IMG/VR virus record: IMGVR_UViG_3300016472_001092
Location: 1 to 58,360 of that record
DNA from: a virus
Lineage: Duplodnaviria > Caudoviricetes
DNA: 58,360 nucleotides
Reading direction: 5' to 3' (one strand)
The notes below the pieces were generated by a model. That model searched no databases, was not told the DNA's origin, and saw nothing but the letters and a program-made list of their open reading frames with translations. Below, piece after piece: positions 4,540-28,698 of the stretch (positions are counted from its first letter, which is position 1; each line of letters begins with the position of its first letter). A program made the translations under genes and the position numbers.

Positions 4540-5389
4540 TTTCTCCTCCTGACAATTCATCAATTAGTTTGATGTACAACATGTATTCTGCCACTGTTCC
4601 ATCATCAACGCTAGAAATCTCGTTGATCAATTGATTCTTTACCTCTACTAACTTTCCAGTTAGGTAACCTTCACTTGAATTATTTACGTATTGTTCTATT
4701 GATCCAAGAAGCTTTTCTCTTATTTCTTTTAGCTTCATGATGATTGTTTTATTTTCATCACCATTTGCGGCTGAAAATGCATATGCCTTGATTAGAGATT
4801 TTTGCTCCGTTGTTAGGGTGTTATCGTATTTTTCACCCAATTTCTTCATCATGATTTTCATCAATAATCTATTTGAACCTGTTGCTTCCTCATTAACAAT
4901 CTGTTCATTATTCTCTTGGCTCTTTGGCGTGACCAACCATCTTACGATCTGGTCTTCATACCCTGCCATTCTTGACAAGTCGGGCGTTTTTAAACGCCAA
5001 TCGTTTAAGAGACTTTGTAATGTTGCAAAAGTTCGATATTCTGATATGTGTTGATCATAAAAATTTTCATCATTTAACTGGTGATTTATAGATCTTATCA
5101 GTAAAGACTTCTCTCTATCAAGTTCTGTTGAATTATGTGATCTTGCAGCAGATTTTGCCTCGTTTAAGATAGAAGCAGCGACGGCTTCTGAACTAACCGT
5201 GGTTTTCATTATTGAGTGAATCAACCTAAATTCCTTGTAAAGTTCAGTCCCTGGCTTAAAATGAGATTTGATTATCTTCAACGCCTTTGAAGATTTTTTC
5301 TTATCATTTTCTACCAATGCTTGAGATATTGTTTTTACAAGAAATTCGTATAATAATCCAGTGTTTCTTTTTTTATTGTGAATCGACAT
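4532..5389 (-). CDS. Hypothetical helical head-module protein
   Basis: 285 aa beginning HNKKRNTGLLYEFL; lies between portal and protease and overlaps the protease start. Confidence 0.75.
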   Translation of the reverse strand: MSIHNKKRNTGLLYEFLVKTISQALVENDKKKSSKALKIIKSHFKPGTELYKEFRLIHSIMKTTVSSEAVAASILNEAKSAARSHNSTELDREKSLLIRSINHQLNDENFYDQHISEYRTFATLQSLLNDWRLKTPDLSRMAGYEDQIVRWLVTPKSQENNEQIVNEEATGSNRLLMKIMMKKLGEKYDNTLTTEQKSLIKAYAFSAANGDENKTIIMKLKEIREKLLGSIEQYVNNSSEGYLTGKLVEVKNQLINEISSVDDGTVAEYMLYIKLIDELSGGENV

Positions 5390-5455: not shown

Positions 5456-8400
5456 TTATTCTTCTACGTTAAGATCTATTTCTTCTTGTGACTCCAAAAG
5501 CAAAGAATCGTTTTGTCTTGTCATTCCAAGTGATGTTGACATTTTTCTTAATGATGACATCATGTCGGGTGATAAAGATGTTTTAATTTGTTCTTTTTGA
5601 TTTGAACCACCAAACGATTCATTAAACGGATCGCTTAAATCTCCAAAAGGTTTGCTAAATGAATCGTTTTTATGTGACAATGATCTACCAAAGTCTGGCA
5701 TCCCGTGTCTCTTTTTTCTACTAGGGTGCTTTTTTACACGATTTTTTGGCTTTACAGGCCAATCCTTTTCGTCCAAAGGAGGAAGTTCATCTTCATCTAT
5801 GTCACCGGACATTAGTAACTTTGCCTTACCATCTGCATCATCAGCAGGATCATCTGAGGCTGTTAAATCTTCTCCGGCGGCGGCTTCAGGTTCCTCTGGT
5901 TTTTCTTCGCCACCTCCTCCTGTTTCCCCACCACCGAAAAGATCTTCCTCGCCTCCTGCTTCGCCACCGCCACCAGCTTCTCCCTCTTCACCTTCTGGCT
6001 TGGCATTTTCAATTCCAAGATCGGTAACCTTTTCCTTTAATCTTTGTTGGTTGATCTCATCAATTTGTTCATCATTCAAGCCCCAAATCTCACGTTGGAC
6101 AAATCGACGACTACCCATTCCTTCAGGAAGCGCTCCACCAATTTCAAATTTTGATTTCCATAGTTCAAGTTTCTGCTGTTGTGCCATCGTAGATGGATTT
6201 GATAATCGTAATACAAAGTTCTGAAGATCATCACCATCATAACCATTTGCATAAAGATGAATGATAGCAAGCTTGTTTAACTCTGAAATGATCGTTTTCT
6301 GAATAACGCTGATCGTTCTTGAAAAGCGTATATCCTCTTGGGCTAACGTTGCCTTTGATGAAAGCATCTCATCATAACCAAGGTATGCCCTTGGGACCTT
6401 CAACGCAGCAAAGAGTTTCTTTTGCATGTATTGAACGTCTTCGACAGTCGCAGCATTCTGACCACCGGATAAAGTATCAATCTTTGTGCCTGATTCACCA
6501 CCACGAACAGCAATGAAATAATCATCTTCAACGCTAAGTGGAGAGTAACGAAGATCAACTCTTCCAGTATTTCTATCAACTACCTGGTTTGTTCTCAGAT
6601 TTTTTCTTTGTTCTTCAACGTACATAGGTACATTTTCTGGGGGGATATTAGCTACGTCGATGTAAAAGACACGACGCTCCGGAGCACGAACTATGCGGTA
6701 AACCAACATAGCGTCCTCAAGGAGTATCAACTGTCTCCAAATTCTGCGCGCAGGTTCAATCAATGATGAACCGTAAGGAAGAAACATGTCATTTCCAAGC
6801 AGACGAAAATGTGTTACTTCCCAATTTTCTAACGTTCTATTTCCTAACGTTGACCAACGATATCTCACCGCAAATGGATCTTCACGATCGTAGTTTTCTT
6901 CTCTTTCTATCTCGTTAACTGGTATAGGAAATGCGTGAAGAACTCCTTGTGTTGGAGAAACATCGTTATATAAGAAAAAATCTCCATACTTGACTAGATT
7001 TCGAGCCCAAGAACGTAGGTTAAACTCAACGTTCAGGATATTATAAAAAAGATCTTCAAGGATGTCTTTTACTTTTTCATCATCAGAATAAACGTGAAGT
7101 ACCCTTCCTTTATCATCCTGCGCAACAGTTTCATCTGCATAAATGTCCATTGCAGCTGCAATTTCTGCAGTGTTGTGTGATATCACAGAATCAGTTGCAA
7201 AGTTTTTATAACCGTCAACAGTTAAATCATACAAAGGAATTGTTTCACCTAGTTCTATTGAAACAACTTTCATGTTTTCATAAGAACTTGAAAAATCTGT
7301 GAAATTTTTATATCCAGCGTTCTTTATTCTTTTGTCTAAAATAGTGGTTGTAGTAGAAGCTTCTTGAGCAAGCTTCACCTTAGACATACCTTTGGAAAAT
7401 TTTGAGCATATCAAATCAAAAGTTACACGATGCTCATAACGAGGATTTTTTTCTCCCTTGTTGTCCCAAGAATGATTTCTCCAATCTGGATTATACGCTT
7501 TTGAAAAAACTTCAAAGTTTTGATAACCGTGTTTTCGGAGTCTTCTTTTGATTACGTTTGGATCTGTTCCAAACACTTCACAAACCCTATAAAGATTAAA
7601 ATCTACCTTTTCGCTTATTTCAAGAATCCTACCAAAAGTTATGTCTTTTCTTTCTGCAGGATTGTTTTCAATCATAAACTTTGAGTGATTAACCTTAAAT
7701 TGTTCAATCCACTCAGCATTTTGTTCTGACCATTTTGCACCATTGATAATCTTAGCATGAAGGTTGCGATGATCAAGTTCTGTCATCACCCTAAGGTTTT
7801 CTAATCGATTATCATTCTTTTTGAAATTAATATGATGCACAACTTCGTTTTCTTCAAGCTGAGATCCTTTTATCATTTCTCCGAGGATACGATGTTCTGC
7901 TACCCACCCATTCATCTTTGATCTACGATCCATTGAGTAGATCCAACGATATCCGTCTCCATCTTCTTTACACCCGTTAAATAAATCCCTTCTATAGAAA
8001 GGCATCATTGCATCGCCGGGTTTCAAGTTTTCAATCATACAATACGTACCATCTCGTTTCATGAGACGATGGTTTGAAGATCCAATAATCTTTTGACCAT
8101 TGTCAAAAGTAACAACATATGATTGATCAATTGTCGTTTGCCTCGCCTGCTTTGCTACAGCGGGAACGATTCTTCCTAAATTATGATCATAAGAATAAAC
8201 AATAAATCTGTGATCAGGATTCTTCGAACAATCTTCAGAAAGTTCTTTTATGGTACGATACCCTCCAGGAACAGCTATCAGCGTATCTCCATGCAAACAG
8301 TATTCCATTTCTTGAAAATCTTGATACCTCATCAGACGTTCTGAGAGGTTGTAAGAATTCGCTGTAATTACAGAGTACGTTGGTGATGTTGAGCGTTGAA

Positions 8401-8545
8401 ACAACAAAGCTCCAGAAGACTTGACTTTGTCTGCAACTGCGATCGTTGTGTCAAACCCTTTTACCTTACGTTTAACAACAGGACCGCTTTTAAATAGACG
8501 AGTAAGCCTCTGAAACAGGTTTTTGTTTCTATCTTCTTTGGACAC
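5456..8545 (-). CDS. gp20: Portal protein (T4 gp20-like) containing an intein
   Basis: Motifs EDAMLVYRIVRAPERRVFYIDV, EDDYFI, GTKIDTLSGG, KLFAALKVP and QEDIRF. GTG start, acidic C-terminal extension; 653 aa after removing the intein. Confidence 0.93.
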   Translation of the reverse strand: MSKEDRNKNLFQRLTRLFKSGPVVKRKVKGFDTTIAVADKVKSSGALLFQRSTSPTYSVITANSYNLSERLMRYQDFQEMEYCLHGDTLIAVPGGYRTIKELSEDCSKNPDHRFIVYSYDHNLGRIVPAVAKQARQTTIDQSYVVTFDNGQKIIGSSNHRLMKRDGTYCMIENLKPGDAMMPFYRRDLFNGCKEDGDGYRWIYSMDRRSKMNGWVAEHRILGEMIKGSQLEENEVVHHINFKKNDNRLENLRVMTELDHRNLHAKIINGAKWSEQNAEWIEQFKVNHSKFMIENNPAERKDITFGRILEISEKVDFNLYRVCEVFGTDPNVIKRRLRKHGYQNFEVFSKAYNPDWRNHSWDNKGEKNPRYEHRVTFDLICSKFSKGMSKVKLAQEASTTTTILDKRIKNAGYKNFTDFSSSYENMKVVSIELGETIPLYDLTVDGYKNFATDSVISHNTAEIAAAMDIYADETVAQDDKGRVLHVYSDDEKVKDILEDLFYNILNVEFNLRSWARNLVKYGDFFLYNDVSPTQGVLHAFPIPVNEIEREENYDREDPFAVRYRWSTLGNRTLENWEVTHFRLLGNDMFLPYGSSLIEPARRIWRQLILLEDAMLVYRIVRAPERRVFYIDVANIPPENVPMYVEEQRKNLRTNQVVDRNTGRVDLRYSPLSVEDDYFIAVRGGESGTKIDTLSGGQNAATVEDVQYMQKKLFAALKVPRAYLGYDEMLSSKATLAQEDIRFSRTISVIQKTIISELNKLAIIHLYANGYDGDDLQNFVLRLSNPSTMAQQQKLELWKSKFEIGGALPEGMGSRRFVQREIWGLNDEQIDEINQQRLKEKVTDLGIENAKPEGEEGEAGGGGEAGGEEDLFGGGETGGGGEEKPEEPEAAAGEDLTASDDPADDADGKAKLLMSGDIDEDELPPLDEKDWPVKPKNRVKKHPSRKKRHGMPDFGRSLSHKNDSFSKPFGDLSDPFNESFGGSNQKEQIKTSLSPDMMSSLRKMSTSLGMTRQNDSLLLESQEEIDLNVEE
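7172..8299 (-). mobile_element. Intein (376 aa) with an HNH homing endonuclease domain, inside the portal gene
   Basis: N-junction EY|CLHGDTLI, block-B-like SSNHRLM, block F YDLTVDGYKNF, C-junction ISHN|T. Internal HNH motif EHR...VVHHINFKKNDNRLENL. Confidence 0.92.
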
Positions 8546-11140: not shown

Positions 11141-11440
11141 TTAAAACCGTATGTGTGCAGTAATCTTTTTTCTTCCTTGAAACTTGTCGTCAACCATTTT
11201 TCTATCAGGTCTCCATCCACTTTTCCATTTTTGAATGTTTGGTCTTGCCCAAAACGTTTCACAAGACTCACAACAACCAAAGTTTCTATACGATTTTTCA
11301 TCATCGTACGTTCTCATCATATAATCACACACAGGACATGAAATTGGTACATTTTCTCTTTCATCTACGGGTTTTATGATAAAAAAATCTCCACAATCTT
11401 TTATCAACCTGTCGTTCAGGTAAGGTTTCCATTCGCTCAT
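11141..11440 (-). CDS. Hypothetical Zn-finger protein
   Basis: CPVC...CESC and WRP motifs; ATGA overlap with the upstream gene's stop. Confidence 0.72.
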   Translation of the reverse strand: MSEWKPYLNDRLIKDCGDFFIIKPVDERENVPISCPVCDYMMRTYDDEKSYRNFGCCESCETFWARPNIQKWKSGWRPDRKMVDDKFQGRKKITAHIRF

Positions 11441-14019
11441 ACGTAAACAATCCTCGAATCTTTTTCATTCTTGGTTATTTCTAGAATGTGATCTGCAACA
11501 TCTTTAATTCCGTCAACATGTGTGATCACAAGAACCAATCTAAAATACTTTTTCAAACTAGTTAATAAACGATTACATGCCTCAACACCGGCATCATCAA
11601 GCGTGCCAAATCCTTCGTCAATGATGAACATGTCAGACTTTGACATGGAAGAAACATTGACTAACGCAACTCTTAATGCAATCGATGCTATTGTTTTTTC
11701 CATTCCAGAACACAACTCAATGATTCTTCTGGAATCTCCGTAGTTGATGTATATCTCTGATGCATCTGATTCATCATCGTTTTCAAGTTCAACAGAAAAA
11801 TCGACTATTCCATGAAGAATTTTTAAAATTTCCGCATTGATGACCGGGAGCTGTGACCTGGTGATGATCAACGGAATTCCTTTCTTTGAAAAAGCCCCAG
11901 AGATGATTTCATACGTCTTCATTGTTTGAAGAAGAGAATTACGTGATTCTTTTTCGGATGTTAACTTTTCAATCTCAGACATGAGCTTACCTCTTTGGGT
12001 AGCCAGTGACATCCGTGTCTCATCCCACTCTCTAATTGACTTAGATAAAATTTCAATTTTTGATCTAAGAGAAACAACCTCTGAATTTTCATCATTTTTT
12101 AATGCCTCTTGTAATTCAAGGAGCTTTATCTCTGCTTCTTTCAGGGTTACGGTAAGTGATTCACAATTTGAACGAATTTTTTCAATTTCAGTTTCTTTTC
12201 TCGATATTTCAAGATGAAGCTTCGTAGACAACGCTGATGCTTTTTCTAGCTTTGAAATCCTTGACAACAACGATTCTTTTTCAAGTTTGCTCAATGCATC
12301 TTTTAAATCATTTAATTTTCTTAAAGAAGAATTTACCCTTTCAGTTTGAGTTATCATCTTTTCTTTGTTTTGATGTGCATCTTTGATAAACTTACATGTA
12401 GGATAATCATCGCCACAAGGAACTTCATCTAAAATTTTTAACGATTTTTGTTGTGACTTTAAAAGTGTAGATTCTCTGTCATGTATGTGTTGTAACTCTA
12501 GAACTGATTTCTCAAGCTCGTCTATGTTTGAAAGTCTTTTCTTTAAAGTCGATAGATCATCGGAAGACTCAACCTCTTCAACTATCAAAAGCTTTTCTCT
12601 TAAAGAACCTATCTCTTCGTTCAAAACATCAATTTTTGAGCAAGATTCACTGCATGTGATTTTAATATTTTTTACCTTTTGTTCTTGAAGTTGAACGTCT
12701 AATATGGTTACTGGTTTGTGACCTTTATGGGACAAAAGTTCCGTTTTTAGATTTGATATTTCATTTTGTGAAGATTGAGAGTCTAAAACAAGCTGATCAA
12801 TCTTACGTGAAACATCGGTGATTGTTGAATCGTGAATCTTTTTTAATTCATCCCAGTTCTTGTCAGGAAAGTTTTTTAACTGCGCCTTAAATACGTTTAA
12901 ATCCTTTGACGACATGTCATACATCTTGTCAAAGATATCTAAGCCAAGAAATCTAGAAAGAGTTGCTCTTCTTCTTGTTGAACCTTGATGTATGAATGCA
13001 TTGATGTCTCCCTGCGCAGACAACGCCGTCAAAGAAAAATCTTCGCTAGTTCCTATTAGGTTCCTTATTAACTTTTCGGTACCCGTTCTAATATCATCAC
13101 ACAAATCATCAACGTCCCCATCTTCACGCATTCTATAGAAGTTTAAAGATGTAGATGCATTTGTAATTCCTTTTTTGTTGATTGATTTTGTTGTCTGCCT
13201 CTCTGTGATGTAAATCTTTCCATTATGATCAAAAACAGCGCGGGCATAACAATGAGGCTTTCTAATGTTACAAACATGAAGATTTTTTAAAGATCCTCTG
13301 TCTGTGGTGTTAAACAACGAATACATCATTGTTCCAACGATTGATGATTTTCCTATTCTATTTGAACCAAAGATTCCAACAATTCCATTGAGCTTTGAAA
13401 AATCTATTTCGTTTTCTTCACCATAAGCAAACGTATTATCCCACTTTAAATGCCTCAATGACCATTTTGAACCTTTAACGTAATCATCAGTTGATGCAAC
13501 CACAGACATGTATTTTTTGATTTGATTGGACATAGAATCCCAATCAACTTCGTTGTTTCCATTCTCTTTACAGTACGTTTGAATCAACCCAAGTATGACA
13601 TCCGGAGATGTAAGATCCGATTTTGCGATTGTAGTTGATCCGGTTTTAATAGTTTCACTTTCTGCACGATATTCAGCCTTAAACGTTACTTCAGTTGCTG
13701 CAAAAGAGTTTTTTAATGTATCATTTAAAAAAGTAACATCATCCTGACTTAATTCTAACTGAGACTTAATTCTAAACCTTGATTTTTGAGGATAATTTTT
13801 AACCTCTTTTAGAAAATCATCCTGTGAACCATTCCATTGAATTGTCACATATGGTTTGGGATTTGGAAGTTTTTTAAACTTAACCTCCCAATCATTTTCA
13901 TCATTAATGTCCCAAAGAAGATAACCATGATCTAACTCTTCTGCATAATTCTGCTGCACGGGACAACCACTGTAAGCTATCCAAGGTTTTTTTACCTTTA
14001 TTTTTATCTTTTTTCCCAT
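11437..14019 (-). CDS. Rad50/SbcC (gp46-like) ATPase fused to the C-terminal part of an Mre11/SbcD (gp47-like) nuclease
   Basis: N-terminal WIAYSGCPVQQNYAEE..HGYLLWD matches the last phosphoesterase motif and cap. Walker A GSNRIGKSS, coiled coil with a PCGDDYPTC hook, signature CSGMEK, Walker B FIIDEGFGTLD and ITH. Confidence 0.9.
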   Translation of the reverse strand: MGKKIKIKVKKPWIAYSGCPVQQNYAEELDHGYLLWDINDENDWEVKFKKLPNPKPYVTIQWNGSQDDFLKEVKNYPQKSRFRIKSQLELSQDDVTFLNDTLKNSFAATEVTFKAEYRAESETIKTGSTTIAKSDLTSPDVILGLIQTYCKENGNNEVDWDSMSNQIKKYMSVVASTDDYVKGSKWSLRHLKWDNTFAYGEENEIDFSKLNGIVGIFGSNRIGKSSIVGTMMYSLFNTTDRGSLKNLHVCNIRKPHCYARAVFDHNGKIYITERQTTKSINKKGITNASTSLNFYRMREDGDVDDLCDDIRTGTEKLIRNLIGTSEDFSLTALSAQGDINAFIHQGSTRRRATLSRFLGLDIFDKMYDMSSKDLNVFKAQLKNFPDKNWDELKKIHDSTITDVSRKIDQLVLDSQSSQNEISNLKTELLSHKGHKPVTILDVQLQEQKVKNIKITCSESCSKIDVLNEEIGSLREKLLIVEEVESSDDLSTLKKRLSNIDELEKSVLELQHIHDRESTLLKSQQKSLKILDEVPCGDDYPTCKFIKDAHQNKEKMITQTERVNSSLRKLNDLKDALSKLEKESLLSRISKLEKASALSTKLHLEISRKETEIEKIRSNCESLTVTLKEAEIKLLELQEALKNDENSEVVSLRSKIEILSKSIREWDETRMSLATQRGKLMSEIEKLTSEKESRNSLLQTMKTYEIISGAFSKKGIPLIITRSQLPVINAEILKILHGIVDFSVELENDDESDASEIYINYGDSRRIIELCSGMEKTIASIALRVALVNVSSMSKSDMFIIDEGFGTLDDAGVEACNRLLTSLKKYFRLVLVITHVDGIKDVADHILEITKNEKDSRIVYV

Positions 14020-14906
14020 AACTTATTAGTCAAAATCTCTGAAAAATTTTCATTTATTATTTCTGATTCCCAGAATCTTAATAGATGCAGCCCTGCGTCA
14101 TTTGCAAGTTGATTTTTTATGTTATCATTAACAGAATTGTACTGTTGGATGTGATCTTTTTCTTTGTATATAGATGGATTTGCGTGCCAATAATCACCAT
14201 CACATTCAATCAATATTTTCATTTCAGGAACATAAAAATCAAATTCTCTCTTTATTAAATCTAATTCAAGAGTATAAGGATGAACAAACTGTATTTGTAA
14301 AGAAGTCAATAACTCATACACTATTTTTTCTATTCTTGTGTCTCTTTTAGGAATAGCTTCTTTTGCAATCTGCTGACTTGTTTTTCCGTATAACTCAATA
14401 TTTGTTTTTTCACATTTTTGACGAATATCTCTGTTTGACCATGGATGTTTAAATCCATATTTGCCTTCGCAAGTTTTTCTACGCTTTTCTTTACTAAACT
14501 CAAGCTGACCGAGAGAATAACCAGTTTCTTCTTTTCTTTTATCAGAAACTTGTTTCATTAACTCTGAATGATTAATGACGTTTTCTTCTTTGCTCCAGTA
14601 TATTTTTTGAGATTCTCTTACAAGATTTCTTGTTTCTTCTGACGGAGAAACTCCATGTCTTGGATTGTTTTCACCAAGGTATGTCACTCTTTGATGATCA
14701 TCTTTACATGTTCTTGAACAATATCTTTTATTTTTATTGGATTTCCAATCTTTGCAAAAGATAAATTCTTCTTGGCAATTTTCACATTTCCTTTTTTCTC
14801 TAGCTGCTTTAGTGTTCTGCTTTGCTACACCTGCAGCTTGACATTTTCTACTACAATAACTCTTTTGTTTTTCAAGTTGTCCACCACAGTTATTACATTT
14901 TCTCAT
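14004..14906 (-). CDS. Free-standing putative homing endonuclease (Zn-finger repeats + NUMOD-like segment + Vsr/DUF559-like PD-(D/E)xK domain)
   Basis: Two CxxC...YCSxxC repeats, GENNPRHG...SEETR, and C-terminal FDFYVP...LIECDGDYWH...LLRFWESEI. Inserted between the two halves of the nuclease gene. Confidence 0.82.
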   Translation of the reverse strand: MRKCNNCGGQLEKQKSYCSRKCQAAGVAKQNTKAAREKRKCENCQEEFIFCKDWKSNKNKRYCSRTCKDDHQRVTYLGENNPRHGVSPSEETRNLVRESQKIYWSKEENVINHSELMKQVSDKRKEETGYSLGQLEFSKEKRRKTCEGKYGFKHPWSNRDIRQKCEKTNIELYGKTSQQIAKEAIPKRDTRIEKIVYELLTSLQIQFVHPYTLELDLIKREFDFYVPEMKILIECDGDYWHANPSIYKEKDHIQQYNSVNDNIKNQLANDAGLHLLRFWESEIINENFSEILTNKLWEKR

Positions 14907-14923
14907 TGTAATAACTATACCAG

Positions 14924-14943
14924 TTCAACAAAATCTTGTTGAA
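14924..14943. repeat. 8-bp hairpin between the nuclease N-fragment stop and the endonuclease start
   Basis: TTCAACAA-AATC-TTGTTGAA. Confidence 0.55.
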
Positions 14944-15594
14944 TTATTCAACGATAGTACATCCAGGATACTTGCATAAATCATCTTCATCTATCTCTAT
15001 TTCTACTTCTCTAAAATCAAGATACTGGGTCTTGTGAATATCACCAAGCAAAGCAAAATCATAATCCTTAAAAAATTCTACCTTCAGTTGAGCCTCATCT
15101 ATTTCCCAACCTGATTCAGTAACGCAGCCATAAACCGGTCCATGGTAACAAGCTATGTTAATCTTCCCAGGTTCTGGGTGAACATCCTTCCAACCTTCCT
15201 CATCAAACAGTGAATAAACACACCAATTATAACCAGGGTGGAATTCATAAATTCCGCTTTTCTTATAAAGATGAACCCGTGGATTATTTAACGCTGAAAC
15301 TATCGGTGTTACAGCGTCCTGCCTAGAAAGGTTTACAAGGTTTCCGTCATGGTTTCCCAAGGTAAGATGAACTACAGCGACCTCAGACATCGCACCCAAC
15401 CACCACGTCAAAAAATCAATGTATTCAGGAGAAATACCGGTTGTCTTGGTATGAAAGATATCACCACCAACAAAAATGTGATCTACCTTGTTTTTTTTAC
15501 AATCTTTTATAAACGCATTAAACACTTCACGGTATTCATCGTGTCGTGAAAGAGAGCGAATGTGAACGTCGGCAATATGTGCAATGCGTACCAT
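14944..15594 (-). CDS. Mre11/SbcD (gp47-like) metallophosphoesterase, N-terminal fragment
   Basis: Motifs DVH, GGDIFH, GNHD, YHG and LGDIHK. Ends just after GDIHKTQYL with a non-canonical acidic tail. Confidence 0.9.
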   Translation of the reverse strand: MVRIAHIADVHIRSLSRHDEYREVFNAFIKDCKKNKVDHIFVGGDIFHTKTTGISPEYIDFLTWWLGAMSEVAVVHLTLGNHDGNLVNLSRQDAVTPIVSALNNPRVHLYKKSGIYEFHPGYNWCVYSLFDEEGWKDVHPEPGKINIACYHGPVYGCVTESGWEIDEAQLKVEFFKDYDFALLGDIHKTQYLDFREVEIEIDEDDLCKYPGCTIVE

Positions 15595-17863: not shown

Positions 17864-18271
17864 TTAAAGCAAACCCATATCTTTTAATTCTATTTCCGTA
17901 AGCACTTTATAGGTCACTCCGTGGGTCGTGCACCATTCTTTGGCGGCTCTAATCTTCTTCACCACTGTGGCTTGTCCTAACTTACGAGACGGCTTGATTT
18001 CTATTATCACTTTTTTGCCATCCTTGTATTCTACTTGAAAATCTGGGTAATACTTGCGTACCTTCTTCGTCTTTTTATTAGAAACATACTCTATCACAAG
18101 TTTTTCATATGACCAAGAAACTACATTTGGATCAGCATCGAGATAATCCATGTATTTTTTTTCCCAACCTGATCTGTACTTACACTCACCCGCAATAGGT
18201 GAAACGTGCGTCCCCCTGTGATAGCGACTCTTACGTTTTCTTTTTCTTTTGGTTTTAGGAGGCATGATCAA
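17864..18271 (-). CDS. Head-completion nuclease (T4 gp4 / TnsA N-terminal-like)
   Basis: YRSGWE...LD..PNVVSWSYE, YYPDF, IEIKP and K..AAKEWC. The true start may be the ATG at 18265. Confidence 0.82.
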   Translation of the reverse strand: MIMPPKTKRKRKRKSRYHRGTHVSPIAGECKYRSGWEKKYMDYLDADPNVVSWSYEKLVIEYVSNKKTKKVRKYYPDFQVEYKDGKKVIIEIKPSRKLGQATVVKKIRAAKEWCTTHGVTYKVLTEIELKDMGLL

Positions 18272-22881: not shown

Positions 22882-22899
22882 AAGATTTTTAAAAATCTT
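22882..22899. repeat. Perfect 18-bp palindrome
   Basis: AAGATTTTTAAAAATCTT immediately after the stop of the 621-aa gene. Confidence 0.4.
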
Positions 22900-24763
22900 A
22901 AGCCAGTTTACCACTTGTTAAATCTGCAAGTTTGATTTCAACGTTTCTACTTTTTTGATTATCTATGTTAATAAAATTTAACACATACTTTGAAACCGAA
23001 GATTGATTTGACGGAGAAGTATTTGAAATTATTTTTGTTTTTGAATTATCATCGTTTTTTATAAAATAGCATAAAGGCGTAAAATAAACGTTAACAACGT
23101 TCTTTGATGAAGTTTTGATTGTGTCAACAAAAAGATCTTTTTCAAGATACATGTTTGGATATTGTTTAGGAGCACCCGCAATTGAAACTAACTCTTTAGT
23201 AAGTTTGTTATTAAAAGAATCAAACCTAACCCTAAATTGTTCTGAGTAGTTTGAAGTTAATCCATGCGCATCTATCGATGCAAGTGAATATATGTACTCA
23301 GATGATTTCATGAAATCATCATCATAAAAACTTAACACTGGGTTTGGTAAAGTGTTTTCTATTGCTGTGGGATTTATCATGTCATCAAGGTCTTGAAACT
23401 TAACGATTGAATCGTTAAAATCGAACATTTTTATTAGTTCAAATGGTTCATTAATACTTTTTCTTCTAAAAAGTTGAAATTTCTTAATATCCATTTGAGA
23501 ATTTATGGGATATGACCAACAGATTAATAAAGATCCCCTAATTCCGGTGTTAGGAAGAATCTTGTTACTTGAATGATCAAACGTTGCTGTCACTGGATTA
23601 AAACGATCATAATCCCAAACATACTTTACTTCTACCGGTGGAGGAGGGGCAATTGCTTCAGACGTCTCTGCATATGCTATTACTGATTTTGAGCTCACTA
23701 GTGATTTAACTTTAAAAAAGTTAAGGTTTTCTTTGCCGACTGAGTTATACGTTACACTTGCTATCGTTTTTATCTTATAGACATAAATGGCTCCATACCT
23801 TACGTTAAGATCTATGTAACCATTAACAGATCCACCTTCTATGATGATTGGATCGTGATTTTTTATAGTTTTATCAGAAAATAGCTCTACTTTTTCGATC
23901 AAGTATCCAACAATTTCAACAGTTGGATCACCTTCTGATGACTCCTTTTGATACCATGGTATTGATGGTTTGAATTCATCATCACTTAAATCAAAATTGC
24001 TGTTGATCGTTTTTACTTTTTTTGCAAATTCTAACTGAGCTTCACTTGCAAATGATTCATTATTTAAGTGATAAGAACCTGATGCTTGCAAAAACAATTC
24101 ATACAAAAAATTATTATTAATTTGCGAATTAAACTTTACCGTCTTCAATCTTTTAAAATATGGATTTATGACATTACTTTTAAAAAATGTTCCGCCTTTT
24201 TGTAATTGTAGTGATGTCACTTGACCTATAACTTCACTGTTTGATTCACCATAAAGTGATTGTGAGTTTACTATAAAATTTGGTAATTTGTTCTGATAAT
24301 CAACTTGGCCGTTTTGTTTTACTTCTTTTGACAATCCGTTAAACAAAGAAGAAACCTGCTCATCTAATGATCCTCCACTGACGTTAACTGACGTATAGTA
24401 CCCAGAAGCAAACTTATCCTCTGCAACTATTTTTGAAAAGTTATCTTTCAAAAATTTTCTTAAATCGCTAGTGAAGTTTGATTGTTTTAAAAAATTCACA
24501 CCTGATGGAGGTGAATAACTTAACTTAATATAACGAGGAGCTTTTTTTAAATCATTTTCAGAACCAAAACTTTCACTTGTTTGTTTCGATAGAATGTTTT
24601 GAGAACTATTCATTTTTTCCAGTACGTAGTCAGTAAAAATGTTTGTATCATTTGTGACTTCATCCGGAGTGTAAAAGTTATAAACAAACTTTGATTCGAA
24701 GTTTGAAACTTCAGGTATGTCAATTGAATAAATTAATTTTGAAGGTACCGTTTTTATTCCCAT
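22898..24763 (-). CDS. Hypothetical virion protein with probable FN3/Ig-like domains
   Basis: GYLIEK...YIDLNV.YG..YVYKI and PPPP...W...FQLFRR...YIYSLASIDAHGLTSNYS patterns. Confidence 0.6.
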   Translation of the reverse strand: MGIKTVPSKLIYSIDIPEVSNFESKFVYNFYTPDEVTNDTNIFTDYVLEKMNSSQNILSKQTSESFGSENDLKKAPRYIKLSYSPPSGVNFLKQSNFTSDLRKFLKDNFSKIVAEDKFASGYYTSVNVSGGSLDEQVSSLFNGLSKEVKQNGQVDYQNKLPNFIVNSQSLYGESNSEVIGQVTSLQLQKGGTFFKSNVINPYFKRLKTVKFNSQINNNFLYELFLQASGSYHLNNESFASEAQLEFAKKVKTINSNFDLSDDEFKPSIPWYQKESSEGDPTVEIVGYLIEKVELFSDKTIKNHDPIIIEGGSVNGYIDLNVRYGAIYVYKIKTIASVTYNSVGKENLNFFKVKSLVSSKSVIAYAETSEAIAPPPPVEVKYVWDYDRFNPVTATFDHSSNKILPNTGIRGSLLICWSYPINSQMDIKKFQLFRRKSINEPFELIKMFDFNDSIVKFQDLDDMINPTAIENTLPNPVLSFYDDDFMKSSEYIYSLASIDAHGLTSNYSEQFRVRFDSFNNKLTKELVSIAGAPKQYPNMYLEKDLFVDTIKTSSKNVVNVYFTPLCYFIKNDDNSKTKIISNTSPSNQSSVSKYVLNFINIDNQKSRNVEIKLADLTSGKLA

Positions 24764-24823
24764 ATGACTATATCACTTTATTAAATTGACGATTTTTCCT
24801 TATTGCCATCAAACATATGATTT

Positions 24824-24934
24824 GAAGTTGTTGCTAGAAGATTTGCCTAATCTTGAGGCACCGCGAGCGCGGCGGCGAGCCAACCCGGCGAGGGCGAGAA
24901 ATTGTTGCTAGAAGATTTGCCTAAGCTTGAGGCA
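24824..24934. repeat. 37-bp direct repeat (2 mismatches) flanking a 37-bp GC-rich insert
   Basis: GAARTTGTTGCTAGAAGATTTGCCTAAKCTTGAGGCA at 24824-24860 and 24898-24934; spacer CCGCGAGCGCGGCGGCGAGCCAACCCGGCGAGGGCGA. Confidence 0.85.
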
Positions 24935-27900
24935 ATATTTGCTTTTTGTAATTCTAACTTTTCAGTATAAGATTCAATAACAACAAAGTAGGAGTTCAAA
25001 GAAGCATCTTGAAAAGATTTATCTGCATCAATAAACAAATTTTCATTAGGATTCGGTTTAACTAACTTTCCTTCACGAACATAGCCGTCTAATAATTGAC
25101 TAAGGCTTCTGCCTTTTAATAGTTCTTTATTCAATGAATTGGTTGACTCATAATCAACTATAAACTCTGGATCAAAAATGATATTGTAAACTCTGTCAAA
25201 CTTTTTTGGTTGTAAAAGTCTTGAAATATATGGGTCGGGGTCTGGTAGTGATAAAACTGCACTATTGTTTGTTGCCTTACGAGGAGAAGTTTTGTCTGAT
25301 AAAAGGTTTAACTCAATTGATACTTGAGAATTAATCAAAGATTTATTTAATTCCTCAAGCTCCGTAGCGCTTGAAACAACAAATGATGAATCATTTACTT
25401 TTAATCCTGAGATTAGTTGAATGTAATTTTCAAGTAAAAAGCTTTTTATATGATTTGATAAAACTTCTTGCTTTTCATCTTGTGATAAAAATGAGTATTC
25501 ATCACCAAAAGAGTTTGATTCATCACCCCAGTATTCCTGTTGACCATCCTTAATCATATTTTTATCAGCAAACAAGGAATAATTTCTTGTAGGGAATGAC
25601 TTATAATAAGTGTCAGACTTACCTGAATCAATATTTTTTATTAGTGAGTTTACTCTTACAGGAAACCTAGACGCTTCAAACAAAAATGATTGTGGTAGAT
25701 AAACAATATTATCGTTTAAAAGATCCATCTTATAGATCAAGATCTTAAAAATATCGTTATGTTTATTTGCATAAGAATTTTTTGTAGTTGTTTTATAAAA
25801 TAAACTTTTTAGTAAACCTGGTGGGATTCCAATAGAAATAACTTGTTTGTTATATCCTTTGCCTTTCCTATACTCAGGAAGTTTAAAAAATCCATTTAAA
25901 GCATTTACTATTTTTACCGAGTGTGGTAAACCTTCATGGCTTTTTAAAAATAATTCATTAGATGTTTGATTTTCAGTAGCAATACTTTGAAAAGATTTAT
26001 ACAAATCTTCAAAGTACGAGATAACAATCAAAAGTTGTGGTTCTCTTAACAATAAACTAAGTTTTTTAGTATCATTATTCAAGTAAGTTGAAATACGATC
26101 TATTATTGATGTATCAAATTGTTTTATTTGATTAATAGAAGATTGAAAATTTGAACGTAATACGTTCATTGAATTAATAACAGAAAAAGACAAAGACAAA
26201 TAACGATTTATTTCTTGCTCTATTAATGAAATAATGTTATTTTTTCTTCCTAAATTAATTTTTTTCTTTGCATCTATTAAGTTGTCTTGTGTAAACTCTG
26301 TTAAAATAGTCAGTCTTTCAGGTATAAAAACAGAAGTTGCTCCGCTAACGGCATTTATTGCGGCAGCCTCTGCGGCAAAAGCGGCCGCTTCAAGTTGAGC
26401 GTTTCCACCACTGGCATTAGCTGCTGCTCTCGCTGTTTCCGCAATTTCAATAAGTTTTTTTTCAGCATCTGAATACGTCGGAATAAGTTTATTTTTTTCA
26501 AGAAATAATCCCACTAACCTAACGTTAGTAAACATTGCAACTATTTTACATATTCCATTAAAAACTAGCGGACATAAAAAATTTAAATTAGTAAAGTTAA
26601 GTGTTTTAAGTATATTTGCAACAGTTTTTATTAATCCTATTTTTCCGCTTTTTTCTAAAACATCTTTTAATTCAGTCGAACTATTATTGCTTACAGAATG
26701 ATATGAAGATCTTACAACCCTATCACCAAATTCATCTAAAGATGGAGGTGATTTTTTTTCTCCAACAACATTATAAATAATATCAAAAAGTTTATTTGAA
26801 ACCGTAACCGATGAAGTTGTAGAGTTGGTTAAAGAAATTTCATATGCATAACTGTATAAAACATTTCTTATTTTTCTACCAACTTCATCATTTTTTGAAG
26901 CTCTTTCAAAAAGAGCCACAATATCATTGTCATCTGGAATTGTAGATTCAGTTAATTTAGTTTTAGTACCTCCAATAAAATTTCCATCTTTATCAAGAAA
27001 CTTATTTAATACACTTTTGAAAAACGTTGATGGATTAAAAGATAATGTTGAAACATCCAATGAAGCTAAATTTGGTAAAATGCCAGCTTCTAATAATAGT
27101 GATCCAATATCTTTATCTTCAACCGTAGGAATAAGTGCAACATTTGACATAAAGTCAAAAAAAGTTTTATCTAAATTTTCTAAAACAACTTTAAAATCAT
27201 TAAGTTTATTAACGTTCAAAAAATTGATTAATAAATTTTCAGTGTCATCATTACCAAAAAAATAATTTTCACCTATCATAGAGTTAGTTGGAACACTAAC
27301 TTTTTCAAAAGTTAGAACTGTTTTTGAAGCATCATTAATATCCCTAAAATAAGAGATGTCAGATAGCTTTGTTCCACTATATGTTTGATTTTTTTCAAAA
27401 ACAATTTTTGATGTTGTGTAAGTTCCAAAAAGTGAATCCAACAATTGGTCTCTTACGGTAAAATCAGTGGTAGTTTTTCTTAAAGTTAGTAATGTACGAT
27501 GAGATAATTCCTTTATTGTAAGATAAAACGTTAGTGCTATTATTGAATCATTATCTTTAATTTTTGAAAAGACATCATCAATAGTTTTAAATCTTGTGTG
27601 ATTTTCTAGATCAAAATCAAAAGGAATGTCTACAAATTTTTTTACCGACACCCTAATATCACTTTTCAAATTAGGAAAAAAAGATTCATTACTAAAAAAT
27701 TGATTTTTTTGTTCCAACTGTGTCTTCGGAACTATAAAAGATAAAGAATGTGAGCGAATCAATTCTTTTAACTCATTTATTGCAACCATCCACAATTTTG
27801 TTCCTGAAAAATTTTTAGCAACATTTGCCTCATCAAATGCAATTTCAAGAGATTTTTGTAAGTTTAACTTAGATTCCATTTTTTTTGCAAATGGAATTAA

Positions 27901-28698
27901 CAAATCTTTTGTTGCTTTTGTTCCTGATGAAAAATTTTTATTCACAAACAACGTTGGAGAGTACTCATAAATGTTGTTTGTAAGGTCAAAGTGAGATGTT
28001 TTTGCAACGTTAATAAATTTAATGATGTTTACTATCTGGTTGAGTTGATTTCTTATTGTTGAAATGTCTTTTTTCAAACTTTCATTTTGACTTTTTATGA
28101 ATTTTTGATCAATTCCAGATAGTAGTGAACTACTGGTTGAGTCAACTTGTCTCAAAGATTCAACAAAAACGTCAAATAATTCACCATCATCTGTTTTTGT
28201 GCTTTCGTTTACATACAAAGGATTGAACTTCGACAACATTATGATTTCTGGTCTGATTTCAGATATGTTAGTTAACTCTTCACTTGACTTTTTATCAATG
28301 TTGTTAGAATCCTTATTATGCTGATTTTTAAAATCATTATCTTTACCCAAGTTACCTAGAAATATGTTTGAGCCACTTTTTGTTTCTGATGCAAAAGACC
28401 CATTTAATGGAACCATTGATGGAATTTTTACTTGAGAATTTATAGAATTTTTTGTAGACTCCGAGACAGTTAGGGTGTTTGAAACCTGTTGATTGGTGTT
28501 AGAGACCTGCTGTATGGTTGTTTGTTGAGATGCAGTTTGTGCCTGATTAGGGTTTAATGTTTGCTTTGCAGGTAAGATTTGACCAAGTAATGATGTCTCA
28601 GTTTTTCTAGGAACTGGTTGTGTTTGAACATTACCTGTTTTTATAAACGATTTATTGTTAGATCTAGGTGCTTTAAATGGCATAATTACAAACCTCAA
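24847..28698 (-). CDS. Large hypothetical protein (1283 aa), probably virion-associated
   Basis: Long ORF in the structural cluster with a Q/S/T-rich N-terminus and no recognised motif. The true start may be the ATG at 28683. Confidence 0.65.
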   Translation of the reverse strand: MRFVIMPFKAPRSNNKSFIKTGNVQTQPVPRKTETSLLGQILPAKQTLNPNQAQTASQQTTIQQVSNTNQQVSNTLTVSESTKNSINSQVKIPSMVPLNGSFASETKSGSNIFLGNLGKDNDFKNQHNKDSNNIDKKSSEELTNISEIRPEIIMLSKFNPLYVNESTKTDDGELFDVFVESLRQVDSTSSSLLSGIDQKFIKSQNESLKKDISTIRNQLNQIVNIIKFINVAKTSHFDLTNNIYEYSPTLFVNKNFSSGTKATKDLLIPFAKKMESKLNLQKSLEIAFDEANVAKNFSGTKLWMVAINELKELIRSHSLSFIVPKTQLEQKNQFFSNESFFPNLKSDIRVSVKKFVDIPFDFDLENHTRFKTIDDVFSKIKDNDSIIALTFYLTIKELSHRTLLTLRKTTTDFTVRDQLLDSLFGTYTTSKIVFEKNQTYSGTKLSDISYFRDINDASKTVLTFEKVSVPTNSMIGENYFFGNDDTENLLINFLNVNKLNDFKVVLENLDKTFFDFMSNVALIPTVEDKDIGSLLLEAGILPNLASLDVSTLSFNPSTFFKSVLNKFLDKDGNFIGGTKTKLTESTIPDDNDIVALFERASKNDEVGRKIRNVLYSYAYEISLTNSTTSSVTVSNKLFDIIYNVVGEKKSPPSLDEFGDRVVRSSYHSVSNNSSTELKDVLEKSGKIGLIKTVANILKTLNFTNLNFLCPLVFNGICKIVAMFTNVRLVGLFLEKNKLIPTYSDAEKKLIEIAETARAAANASGGNAQLEAAAFAAEAAAINAVSGATSVFIPERLTILTEFTQDNLIDAKKKINLGRKNNIISLIEQEINRYLSLSFSVINSMNVLRSNFQSSINQIKQFDTSIIDRISTYLNNDTKKLSLLLREPQLLIVISYFEDLYKSFQSIATENQTSNELFLKSHEGLPHSVKIVNALNGFFKLPEYRKGKGYNKQVISIGIPPGLLKSLFYKTTTKNSYANKHNDIFKILIYKMDLLNDNIVYLPQSFLFEASRFPVRVNSLIKNIDSGKSDTYYKSFPTRNYSLFADKNMIKDGQQEYWGDESNSFGDEYSFLSQDEKQEVLSNHIKSFLLENYIQLISGLKVNDSSFVVSSATELEELNKSLINSQVSIELNLLSDKTSPRKATNNSAVLSLPDPDPYISRLLQPKKFDRVYNIIFDPEFIVDYESTNSLNKELLKGRSLSQLLDGYVREGKLVKPNPNENLFIDADKSFQDASLNSYFVVIESYTEKLELQKANIASSLGKSSSNNFSPSPGWLAAALAVPQD

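Follow-up and report, generated by a model that had tools for sequence, protein, structure and literature searches.

How could a phage enzyme be made whole when its gene is broken inside the catalytic domain? The question is raised by a locus of the IMG/VR virus record IMGVR_UViG_3300016472_001092, of which the whole stretch analyzed here (58,360 bases, 34% GC, completeness ~17% by the CheckV estimate) is called the window. On its minus strand, a fused Mre11-Rad50 (SbcD-SbcC) gene is broken into two open reading frames (ORFs) of 216 and 860 amino acids (aa), hereafter fragment 1 and fragment 2, with a 300-aa ORF, a homing endonuclease gene (HEG), in between; fragment 1 ends in an acidic tail and fragment 2 begins with a basic head. 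We propose that this is a fractured freshwater-phage gene in which a single-chain Mre11-Rad50 is made as two polypeptides that reassemble non-covalently, charged strands extending the interface between them, a reading that we consider likely. The original prediction had taken tail and head for charge-complementary, strand-like tags of an intein-free reassembly system, and its positions and sequences of split, tail and head were correct when checked against the ORFs and the DNA; its interpretation was supported in part.

Anatomy of the split gene

Fragments 1 and 2 lie in the same frame and the 300-aa middle ORF in another. The C-terminal end of fragment 1 consists of the GDIH motif, eight residues up to R195 and the 21-aa tail EVEIEIDEDDLCKYPGCTIVE, and fragment 2 starts with MGKKIKIKVKK followed by PWIAYSGCPVQQNY. 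Only 2 to 7 residues separate this R from KPW in uninterrupted relatives (RDDKPW, RETSDGEKKPW). As uninterrupted homologues are single chains of ~1045-1052 aa, with one of 1066 aa in Microcystis phage Mel-JY01, the ancestral gene would have been a fused Mre11-Rad50. The arrangement with the HEG is not an assembly artifact, since both junctions of the HEG are spanned by contigs of three further studies (~93-97% identity).

Both halves keep their catalytic motifs, as had been claimed. Residues 3-188 of fragment 1 match Pfam Metallophos PF00149 at 55.9 bits for a cut-off of 21.5 (1e-14), and a profile of the fragment-1 alignment found SbcD/Mre11 or related exonucleases in 15 of 15 solved-structure matches (best E 8.6e-9; only profile positions 1-93 align). 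The metal-binding motifs (D-x-H, G-D, G-N-H-D, H, G-x-x-H) and the following Y-x-G motif are present; among 125 aligned sequences, D9, H11, G44, D45, G80, H82, D83, H151 and G184-D185-I186-H187 are invariant and N81 is conserved in at least 90%. Motif V of fragment 1 reads GDIH; the usual consensus of this motif begins with His. Residues 1 to ~185 of fragment 2 align to the part that follows motif V in uninterrupted homologues of 1046-1052 aa, and G18, Q22, Q23 and N24 are invariant in 26 sequences. Fragment 2 is SbcC-like (PHROG phrog_77, 1.6e-48), with Pfam scores that stay under the cut-offs (SMC_N 29.1 bits, cut-off 40; SbcC_Walker_B 19.7 bits, cut-off 27). In the same 26 sequences G223, K224, S225, C535, C542, S771-G772-M773-E774-K775, D801, E802 and H834 are invariant, which we take to be the residues of Walker A, signature, Walker B, H-loop and Cys hook, and the hook is flanked by long helices in an AlphaFold2 (AF2) model of the uninterrupted homologue P0005.

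Tail and head as two halves of one insert

Tail and head had been described as new termini that could not be assigned to a named module; they turned out to be the halves of a hairpin insert of ~33 aa that also exists unbroken. A continuous insert of 33-34 residues aligns with tail plus head in the uninterrupted P0005, P0008 and P0048, relatives of P0048 add three distinct continuous-insert forms (L165, L166 and L168 types), and these six unbroken-insert homologues stem from three 50%-identity clusters. No close relatives of P0005 were found in IMG/VR. Most uninterrupted homologues do without the insert, which is absent from 129 of the 132 that could be classified in the databases.

The split state is a different matter. 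A collection of 5.8 billion proteins held 402 clusters of fragment-1 size; among the best 120 listed, which were examined, 119 end with the acidic tail, the remaining one being a truncated uninterrupted protein. On the side of fragment 2, 120 homologues were listed; 12 of these are split, each with the basic head at its start. Such counts argue that tail and head are not there by chance.

What accompanies the split is the charge. An acidic tail is paired with a basic head in 25/25 split junctions, as predicted, the tail (first 21 aa) carrying -3 to -8 (mean -5.8) and the head (last 10 aa) +2 to +6 (mean +4.9), whereas in the six continuous inserts the tail equivalent ranges from -3 to +1 (mean -1.5) and the head equivalent from -2 to +2 (mean 0.0). 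The difference is significant for each end (Mann-Whitney p = 2e-4, not corrected for phylogeny and with the six inserts coming from three deep clusters). On the larger set, 124/125 tails are net negative, with a mean of -6.1. Strong opposite charge thus goes with the split state only (25/25 versus 0/6). The original prediction had asked whether tail and head co-occur only in split alleles, with or without the HEG, and whether uninterrupted homologues carry the same residues as an ordinary loop. The strong charge is indeed restricted to split alleles, most of them without a HEG; the insert as such is not, being present in six uninterrupted homologues, in forms that lack the charges, which counts in part against the original reading.

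Structure models and a proposed mode of reassembly

The AF2 model of P0005, built from a 132-row alignment at a mean predicted local distance difference test (pLDDT) score of 90.4, shows four elements around the insert: strand 191-203, in which the native strand passes into the first strand of the tail; helix 204-209; strand 214-219; and strand 223-235, in which the counterpart of the head continues as PWIGY. The insert region has a pLDDT of 91-97 throughout, with 91-95 for the segment homologous to the tail and 94-97 for strand 223-235. The break of the split alleles corresponds to the turn at 220-222, which would make the insert an extension of the native hairpin that connects motif V to motif VI, with the cut in the gene at its tip.

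The two fragments also come together when co-folded, as the original prediction had proposed to check. With fragment 1 of the window (125-row alignment) and residues 1-185 of fragment 2 (26-row alignment), the interaction prediction score from aligned errors (ipSAE) was 0.90, 0.92 and 0.92 versus 0.00 for the best of three controls, for a mark reached by 116/157 solved complexes and 2/215 mismatched pairs. At least 83% of the contacts are common to the runs, and the partner pLDDT is no lower than 74. The predicted interface includes tail residues 196-204, 206, 209 and 211-216 and head residues 2-12, and the contacts of lowest error join residues 192-193 of chain 1 with 13-14 of chain 2, 180-183 with 13-16, and 3-6 with 33-36. 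These last are native contacts, from which fragment 2 would supply two core strands of the phosphoesterase fold. The claim that the tag strands pair between the halves is therefore borne out in part: the models put both in beta strands of the interface, and this interface also contains the core strands of the phosphoesterase.

We propose the following model. The break would lie at the tip of the ~33-aa insert, which lengthens a native beta-hairpin between motif V (GDIH) and motif VI (YSG). Fragment 1 would end with the first strand of the insert, a short helix and a second strand, all acidic, and fragment 2 would begin with the last strand, basic and continuous with the native core strand PWIAY. 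On assembly, fragment 2 would provide the two missing core strands of the phosphoesterase, while the acidic and basic strands would pair antiparallel as an electrostatic extension of the interface, the charges contributing to the assembly of an enzyme expected to be active. As judged from the models, the oppositely charged ends probably zip the two halves together.

Several points weigh against this reading. The lowest-error contacts of the co-fold are those of the native core strands and not tail-head pairs; the co-fold supports reassembly and does not isolate what the tags contribute, and its high score may reflect the likeness of the pair to solved Mre11/SbcD folds, the two chains being halves of one known domain. 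Tail-head pairing and its register are read from secondary structure and interface lists, and the magnitudes of tail and head charge are not correlated across the junctions (rho 0.01). In phage Aeh1, whose NrdA is split by mobE, the tails are described by Crona et al. 2011 (PMC3045599) as needed for the dimerization of heterodimers and not for the binding of one fragment to the other; the same could hold here, with charged ends acting only in higher-order assembly. Moreover, the insert may have a role in unbroken genes that is unrelated to the split.

These last two points belong to the strongest alternative, namely, that the insert is a lineage-specific element with a job of its own, such as DNA contact, Rad50 contact or nuclease dimerization, that the split simply fell in its exposed turn, and that the charges serve this job or higher-order assembly. 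The occurrence of the insert in six unbroken homologues of three clusters fits this view, as does its middle part, I-D-E-x-D-L-x-K-Y-P-G, which is as conserved as the core. We nevertheless regard it as unlikely, given that the strong opposite charge is confined to the split state and that the 129 uninterrupted homologues without an insert argue that the enzyme does not need it to function.

Conservation of the termini as protein

Could tail and head be scars, or signals at the nucleotide level, with no role as protein? They could be the flanks of a cassette carrying a stop, a ribosome-binding site and a start, A-rich initiation codons, or a disrupted HEG target that confers immunity. Indeed, the first codons of the head are the last codons of the HEG on the same DNA, the codons of Glu, Asp and Lys are purine- and A-rich, and Dassa et al. 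2009 (PMC2677866) have proposed that the invading element brings stop and start. The conservation of the amino acids makes this explanation improbable. Tail residues I201, D202, L206, Y209 and P210 are conserved in at least 92% of 118 close split homologues, in which the mean frequency of the commonest residue is 0.69 for the tail and 0.80 for the core, and acidic positions 12-19 codons upstream of the stop are conserved. Over 23 distinct junctions, synonymous sites are saturated (pS 0.84-0.94), and the pooled ratio of nonsynonymous to synonymous change (pN/pS) amounts to 0.36 in the tail and 0.30 in the head. The value for the core, 0.46, comes from unaligned fixed-length windows and is unreliable, and no comparison of selection between tail and core is made from it. 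Finally, R takes a growing share of the basic residues as GC content goes from 33% to 64% (rho 0.63, p 0.001), with no significant change in their number (rho -0.24, p 0.28). This replacement of K by R at a steady basic count argues for selection on the charge of the protein and not on A-rich codons.

Split alleles and the decay of the endonuclease

Scanning viral contigs with fragment 1 (best 80 of 183 relatives used) resolved the relatives into three groups, namely, split genes, uninterrupted genes whose loop is short, and uninterrupted genes whose loop has five more residues. The two loop lengths are seen in the uninterrupted alleles L008-L065 as R-D-D-K-P-W and R-E-T-S-D-G-E-K-K-P-W; the longer-loop class almost always reads GDIHQ, and split alleles read GDIHK or GDIHR. 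Every split gene of this set has a tail of consensus R-x-V-E-L-x-I-D-E-x-D-L-x-K-Y-P-G-A-E-V-x-E and a head of consensus M-[GS]-K-K-I-K-I-K-V-K-K-P-W, the two halves being in frame in some and out of frame in others. No intact endonuclease was present in any of the split loci among L003-L082. Of 23 distinct HEG-less junctions, 12 have stop and start codons that overlap as NTGA, and in the others the two are adjacent or overlap by 1, 8 or 14 nucleotides (nt), overlaps that we read as the signature of translational coupling. A spacer of 6-137 nt is kept in the AT-rich clade of the window itself.

In that clade, the HEG is seen to decay. The DNA alignment shows that an internal deletion in L003 has left the hairpin that follows the stop of fragment 1, ~15 codons at the 5' end of the HEG and ~85 nt at its 3' end, and that L005 retains HEG stubs only, the hairpin being complete in L003 and partly kept in L005. 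The DNA of the 16-nt overlap between HEG and fragment 2 persists in both. It follows that the HEG-free alleles of the clade derive from HEG-bearing ones by deletion. As a further observation, the remnant in L003 and L004 (~4640-4810) forms a 50-aa ORF, and the fragment-1 stop is lost there, so that the tail runs 7 residues further into the hairpin. HEG-bearing alleles are rare but recurrent (the window, L084 and L002), and most split alleles have none; the HEG is dispensable for the split. In the proposed model, the 3' end of the HEG in the junction would provide the start codon and first codons of the head; the HEG, not being required for the split to persist, would decay by deletion and then vanish, leaving an overlapping stop and start with translational coupling.

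We classified 139 database homologues (138 of the best 150 representatives at 50% identity, plus Mel-JY01) as 129 uninterrupted without the insert, 7 split and 3 uninterrupted with a continuous insert. FastTree, applied to 140 N-terminal regions (196 columns), gave a tree on which the split state requires 7 changes for 8 rows, at least 4 of them forced by starred branches, and clusters no better than in shuffles (60/500 as low). With 62/137 branches unresolved, this tree does not tell repeated origin, lateral transfer and loss apart, nor the order of insert and split.

The endonuclease gene in the junction

The HEG matches three PHROG homing-endonuclease families (4e-17, 2e-16 and 2e-11). Its N-terminal part is made of CxxC...YCSxxC repeats and its C-terminal part is a Vsr-like nuclease domain, modeled by AF2 with a pLDDT >93. 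The best Foldseek matches of this domain are Vsr (1cw0_A, E 1.1e-4) and the catalytic domain of I-Bth0305I (3r3p, E 8.4e-4, target template modeling score 0.73); the fold search was needed, as a sequence search of the HEG against PDB sequences gave at best Vsr at E 0.41. In 54 relatives from viral contigs, E193, D223, E234, D236, G237, D238, Y239, W240 and H241 are invariant; D223 and Y239, W240 and H241 match Vsr Asp51 and Phe67-Trp68-His69, and E234 the family Glu at the position of Vsr Phe62, with family residues and Vsr numbering as listed by Dassa et al. 2009 (PMC2677866). The HMMER alignment sets ECDGDYWH of the HEG opposite FTHGCFWH of Vsr. The gene of I-Bth0305I lies in a group I intron of recA, as described by Taylor et al. 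2011 (PMC3239194); the C-terminal domain of the HEG is alike in fold and retains the motif D...E-x-D-G-D-Y-W-H, whereas the gene is free-standing, at an Mre11 junction, and has Cys-rich N-terminal repeats.

Relatives of this HEG are mostly found elsewhere, Mre11 adjoining them at 1/79 loci. L084 has an endonuclease of 324 aa, 39% identical to that of the window, at the same junction of a distant Mre11-Rad50, and its overlap with the downstream start is 8 nt instead of 16 nt. In the huge-phage record LR756508.1 (L002, 484 kb), a 305-aa gene at 5665-6582 occupies the same Mre11 junction; its Cys-rich N-terminal repeats resemble those of the HEG (E 0.001), but its nuclease domain is TnsA-like, which suggests domain swapping on a common DNA-binding module. 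L002 has a longer tail, of 29 aa, and a less basic head (+2). The window also holds, at 17864-18271 on the minus strand, a free-standing ORF of 135 aa for a TnsA-like endonuclease (Pfam 2.8e-18, PHROGs label 'head closure'), of the same domain type as the nuclease end of the L002 protein. The 8-bp stem upstream of the HEG is weak in folding terms (z-score -1.57, 14/200 shuffles folding at least as well).

Splicing, read-through and gene inactivation

Were the intervening DNA to be removed from the RNA as a group I or II intron, or from the protein through trans-splicing by a split intein, a continuous enzyme without tags would result. Phage HEGs often reside in introns or inteins, and the window itself contains a true intein: the portal gene (5456-8545, minus strand, 1029 aa) carries in frame an intein with an HNH endonuclease, detected by the same Pfam search that was run on the fragments (Intein_splicing 2.3e-12 at residues 95-458, HNH_3 at 218-259, Portal_T4 at 458-838, with PHROG portal and HNH matches). 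This search gave no intein match on fragment 1 or fragment 2. A split intein is marked by Cys, Ser or Ala as first residue, by a terminal His-Asn followed by Cys, Ser or Thr, and by a HINT fold of ~130 aa or more. The commonest first residues of the tail in 118 rows are D (54), E (43) and Q (5), with no C or S among these three and D or E in 97/118; the head is followed by Pro-Trp, and tail plus head total ~32 aa. An intein or split intein is rejected on these grounds, in agreement with the original prediction, which had seen no intein motifs. Rfam, scanned permissively over 13500-15500, gave 8 weak matches (E up to 10), with no group I or II intron family among them, and apart from the HEG ORF the insertion comprises only ~117 nt. 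The NTGA overlaps of HEG-less junctions, 4 nt long, leave no room for an intron, and an intron of either group is likewise rejected. Vsr-like HEGs do lie between split-intein halves at loci described by Dassa et al. 2009 (PMC2677866); for the present gene, we consider splicing of either kind very improbable. Read-through of the stop codon to a single chain is rejected for the window, where the frame of the HEG is a different one. No joint that skips the HEG was seen in the contigs of four DNA runs; as only contigs were covered, this absence proves nothing. Among the 20 runs listed for this sequence, none is of RNA.

That the split inactivated the gene and left decaying pseudogene pieces has nothing specific in its favor beyond the harm that splitting a catalytic domain could do, and it is hardly credible in view of hundreds of split alleles from 33% to 64% GC in which both halves are intact, the catalytic, Walker, hook and signature residues are invariant, and stop and start codons remain tightly coupled.

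Known fractured genes and a possible mobile cassette

The arrangement of this locus and the idea of its mechanism have already been published, in the reports of Dassa et al. 2009 (PMC2677866) and Crona et al. 2011 (PMC3045599). Dassa et al. describe a Lake Gatun metagenomic locus at which an SbcD-like gene is fractured by a Vsr-like free-standing HEG without a split intein; 25 C-terminal and 9 N-terminal residues beside the break are absent from other SbcD-like proteins. In their account, hairpins occur upstream of such HEGs, whose 3' ends overlap the downstream start by 6-69 bp, the sbcD locus included. The likeness extends to the type of enzyme, the break between consecutive conserved motifs, the Vsr-like HEG, the lack of a split intein, the 3' overlap and the freshwater origin, and the extra termini are of similar kind by description (25 and 9 residues versus 21 and 11 in the window). 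On the sequence features, we place the window locus with this intein-less SbcD-like variant of their fractured genes, which is described from one metagenomic locus with no role given there to the extra residues (PMC2677866). The split-intein genes of the same report share the order of N-terminal half, hairpin (weak in the window), free-standing HEG, overlapping start and C-terminal half, and association of the halves is also proposed there through the electrostatics of the two longest beta strands; the window differs from them in having no HINT domain, no catalytic Cys/Ser or His-Asn, only ~32 residues and a predicted product of two chains (PMC2677866). Our search of the full-text literature found no paper besides Dassa et al. 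2009 on fractured SbcD/Mre11.

The other precedent is NrdA of phage Aeh1, in which, as reported by Crona et al. 2011 (PMC3045599), tails that come from the insertion are essential for activity and oppositely charged (isoelectric points [pI] 10.4 and 3.8), such tails being predicted at other fractured genes as well. Both cases concern an essential phage enzyme split between adjacent beta strands by a free-standing HEG, with short, oppositely charged tails and assembly without splicing. They differ in the enzyme and in the endonuclease, mobE being of the HNH type, and the polarity is reversed: in NrdA, it is the C-terminal tail that is basic (pI 10.4) and the N-terminal one acidic (pI 3.8), as opposed to an acidic C terminus and a basic N terminus in the window. 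The NrdA tails are absent from unsplit homologues, whereas the insert of the window occurs unbroken in six uninterrupted ones, and they have been proven essential by experiment, whereas the tags of the window are known from sequence and models (PMC3045599). What appears to be new here is the scale of the family, with hundreds of alleles, the coupled HEG-free alleles, the visible stages of HEG decay, the forms with an unbroken insert, the charge contrast and the structure models.

A more far-reaching and tentative idea, which we find possible but doubtful, is that the tail-head pair could be a portable beta-ribbon 'clasp' that travels with the endonuclease as one mobile cassette, providing a stop, a start and a strand pair at the tip of a hairpin, the strands then evolving strong opposite charge by which the halves would be kept together. 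Its life cycle would lead from an intact HEG (the window, L084, L002) to an internally deleted HEG (L003), to stubs only (L005, L034), to an overlapping stop and start (most alleles), and later to re-fusion into an unbroken, charge-neutral insert (P0005 and the P0048 clade). If this were true, the 30-odd residues would be a natural, minimal, intein-free split-protein tag that could be transplanted.

As to the significance of the family, the tested precedent for assembly tails at a HEG-fractured gene is one phage gene, Aeh1 nrdA, in the account of Crona et al. (PMC3045599), and the present family offers hundreds of natural alleles, which fall into three states, being unsplit, unsplit but equipped with the insert, or split, the last with the endonuclease or without it. 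Such a range makes testable the prediction of these authors that tails are a general answer to gene fragmentation (PMC3045599). High charge in the split state only amounts to a natural experiment on how split proteins evolve stickiness, and the termini are a short candidate tag pair for protein engineering. We rate the importance as moderate; this is not a new kind of system.

Features of the locus and neighboring genes

Table 1. Position of the elements of the split Mre11-Rad50 locus in the window
Feature	Position	Strand	Basis
Fragment 1 (216 aa), Mre11/SbcD nuclease domain, N-terminal part with phosphoesterase motifs I-V	14944..15594	-	ORF; Pfam Metallophos; profile matches to SbcD/Mre11 structures
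Acidic tail, 21 aa, net charge -7; predicted first strand, short helix and second strand of the insert	14947..15009	-	Sequence; models
Fragment-1 stop TAA	14944-14946	-	
Hairpin with an 8-bp stem, immediately following the stop of fragment 1 and upstream of the HEG start	14924..14943	-	Sequence; folding (weak)
Free-standing Vsr-like HEG, 300 aa	14004..14906	-	PHROG matches; fold search; AF2
Overlap of 16 nt between the HEG 3' end and the beginning of fragment 2 (start codon, first codons of the head)	14004..14019	-	ORF coordinates
Fragment 2, whole ORF, 860 aa	11437..14019	-	ORF
Basic head, 11 aa, MGKKIKIKVKK, net charge +6; predicted third strand of the insert	13987..14019	-	Sequence; models
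Fragment 2 residues 1 to ~185, last nuclease core strands (motif VI, YSGCPVQQNY) and following Mre11 C-terminal region	13465..14019	-	Lower boundary approximate
Fragment 2 residues ~186 to 860, Rad50/SbcC ATPase, coiled coil, Cys hook	11437..13464	-	Upper boundary approximate

Elsewhere in the window, the region 22898-31139 (minus strand) holds very large ORFs (621, 1283 and 814 aa) without a PHROG match at 1e-5. In Microcystis phage Mel-JY01 (L001), a gene annotated as belonging to the GIY-YIG superfamily (2226-2738) lies two genes upstream of the uninterrupted Mre11-Rad50 and next to a primase gene. The order of primase followed by nuclease is common to Mel-JY01, the window, L002 and L084.

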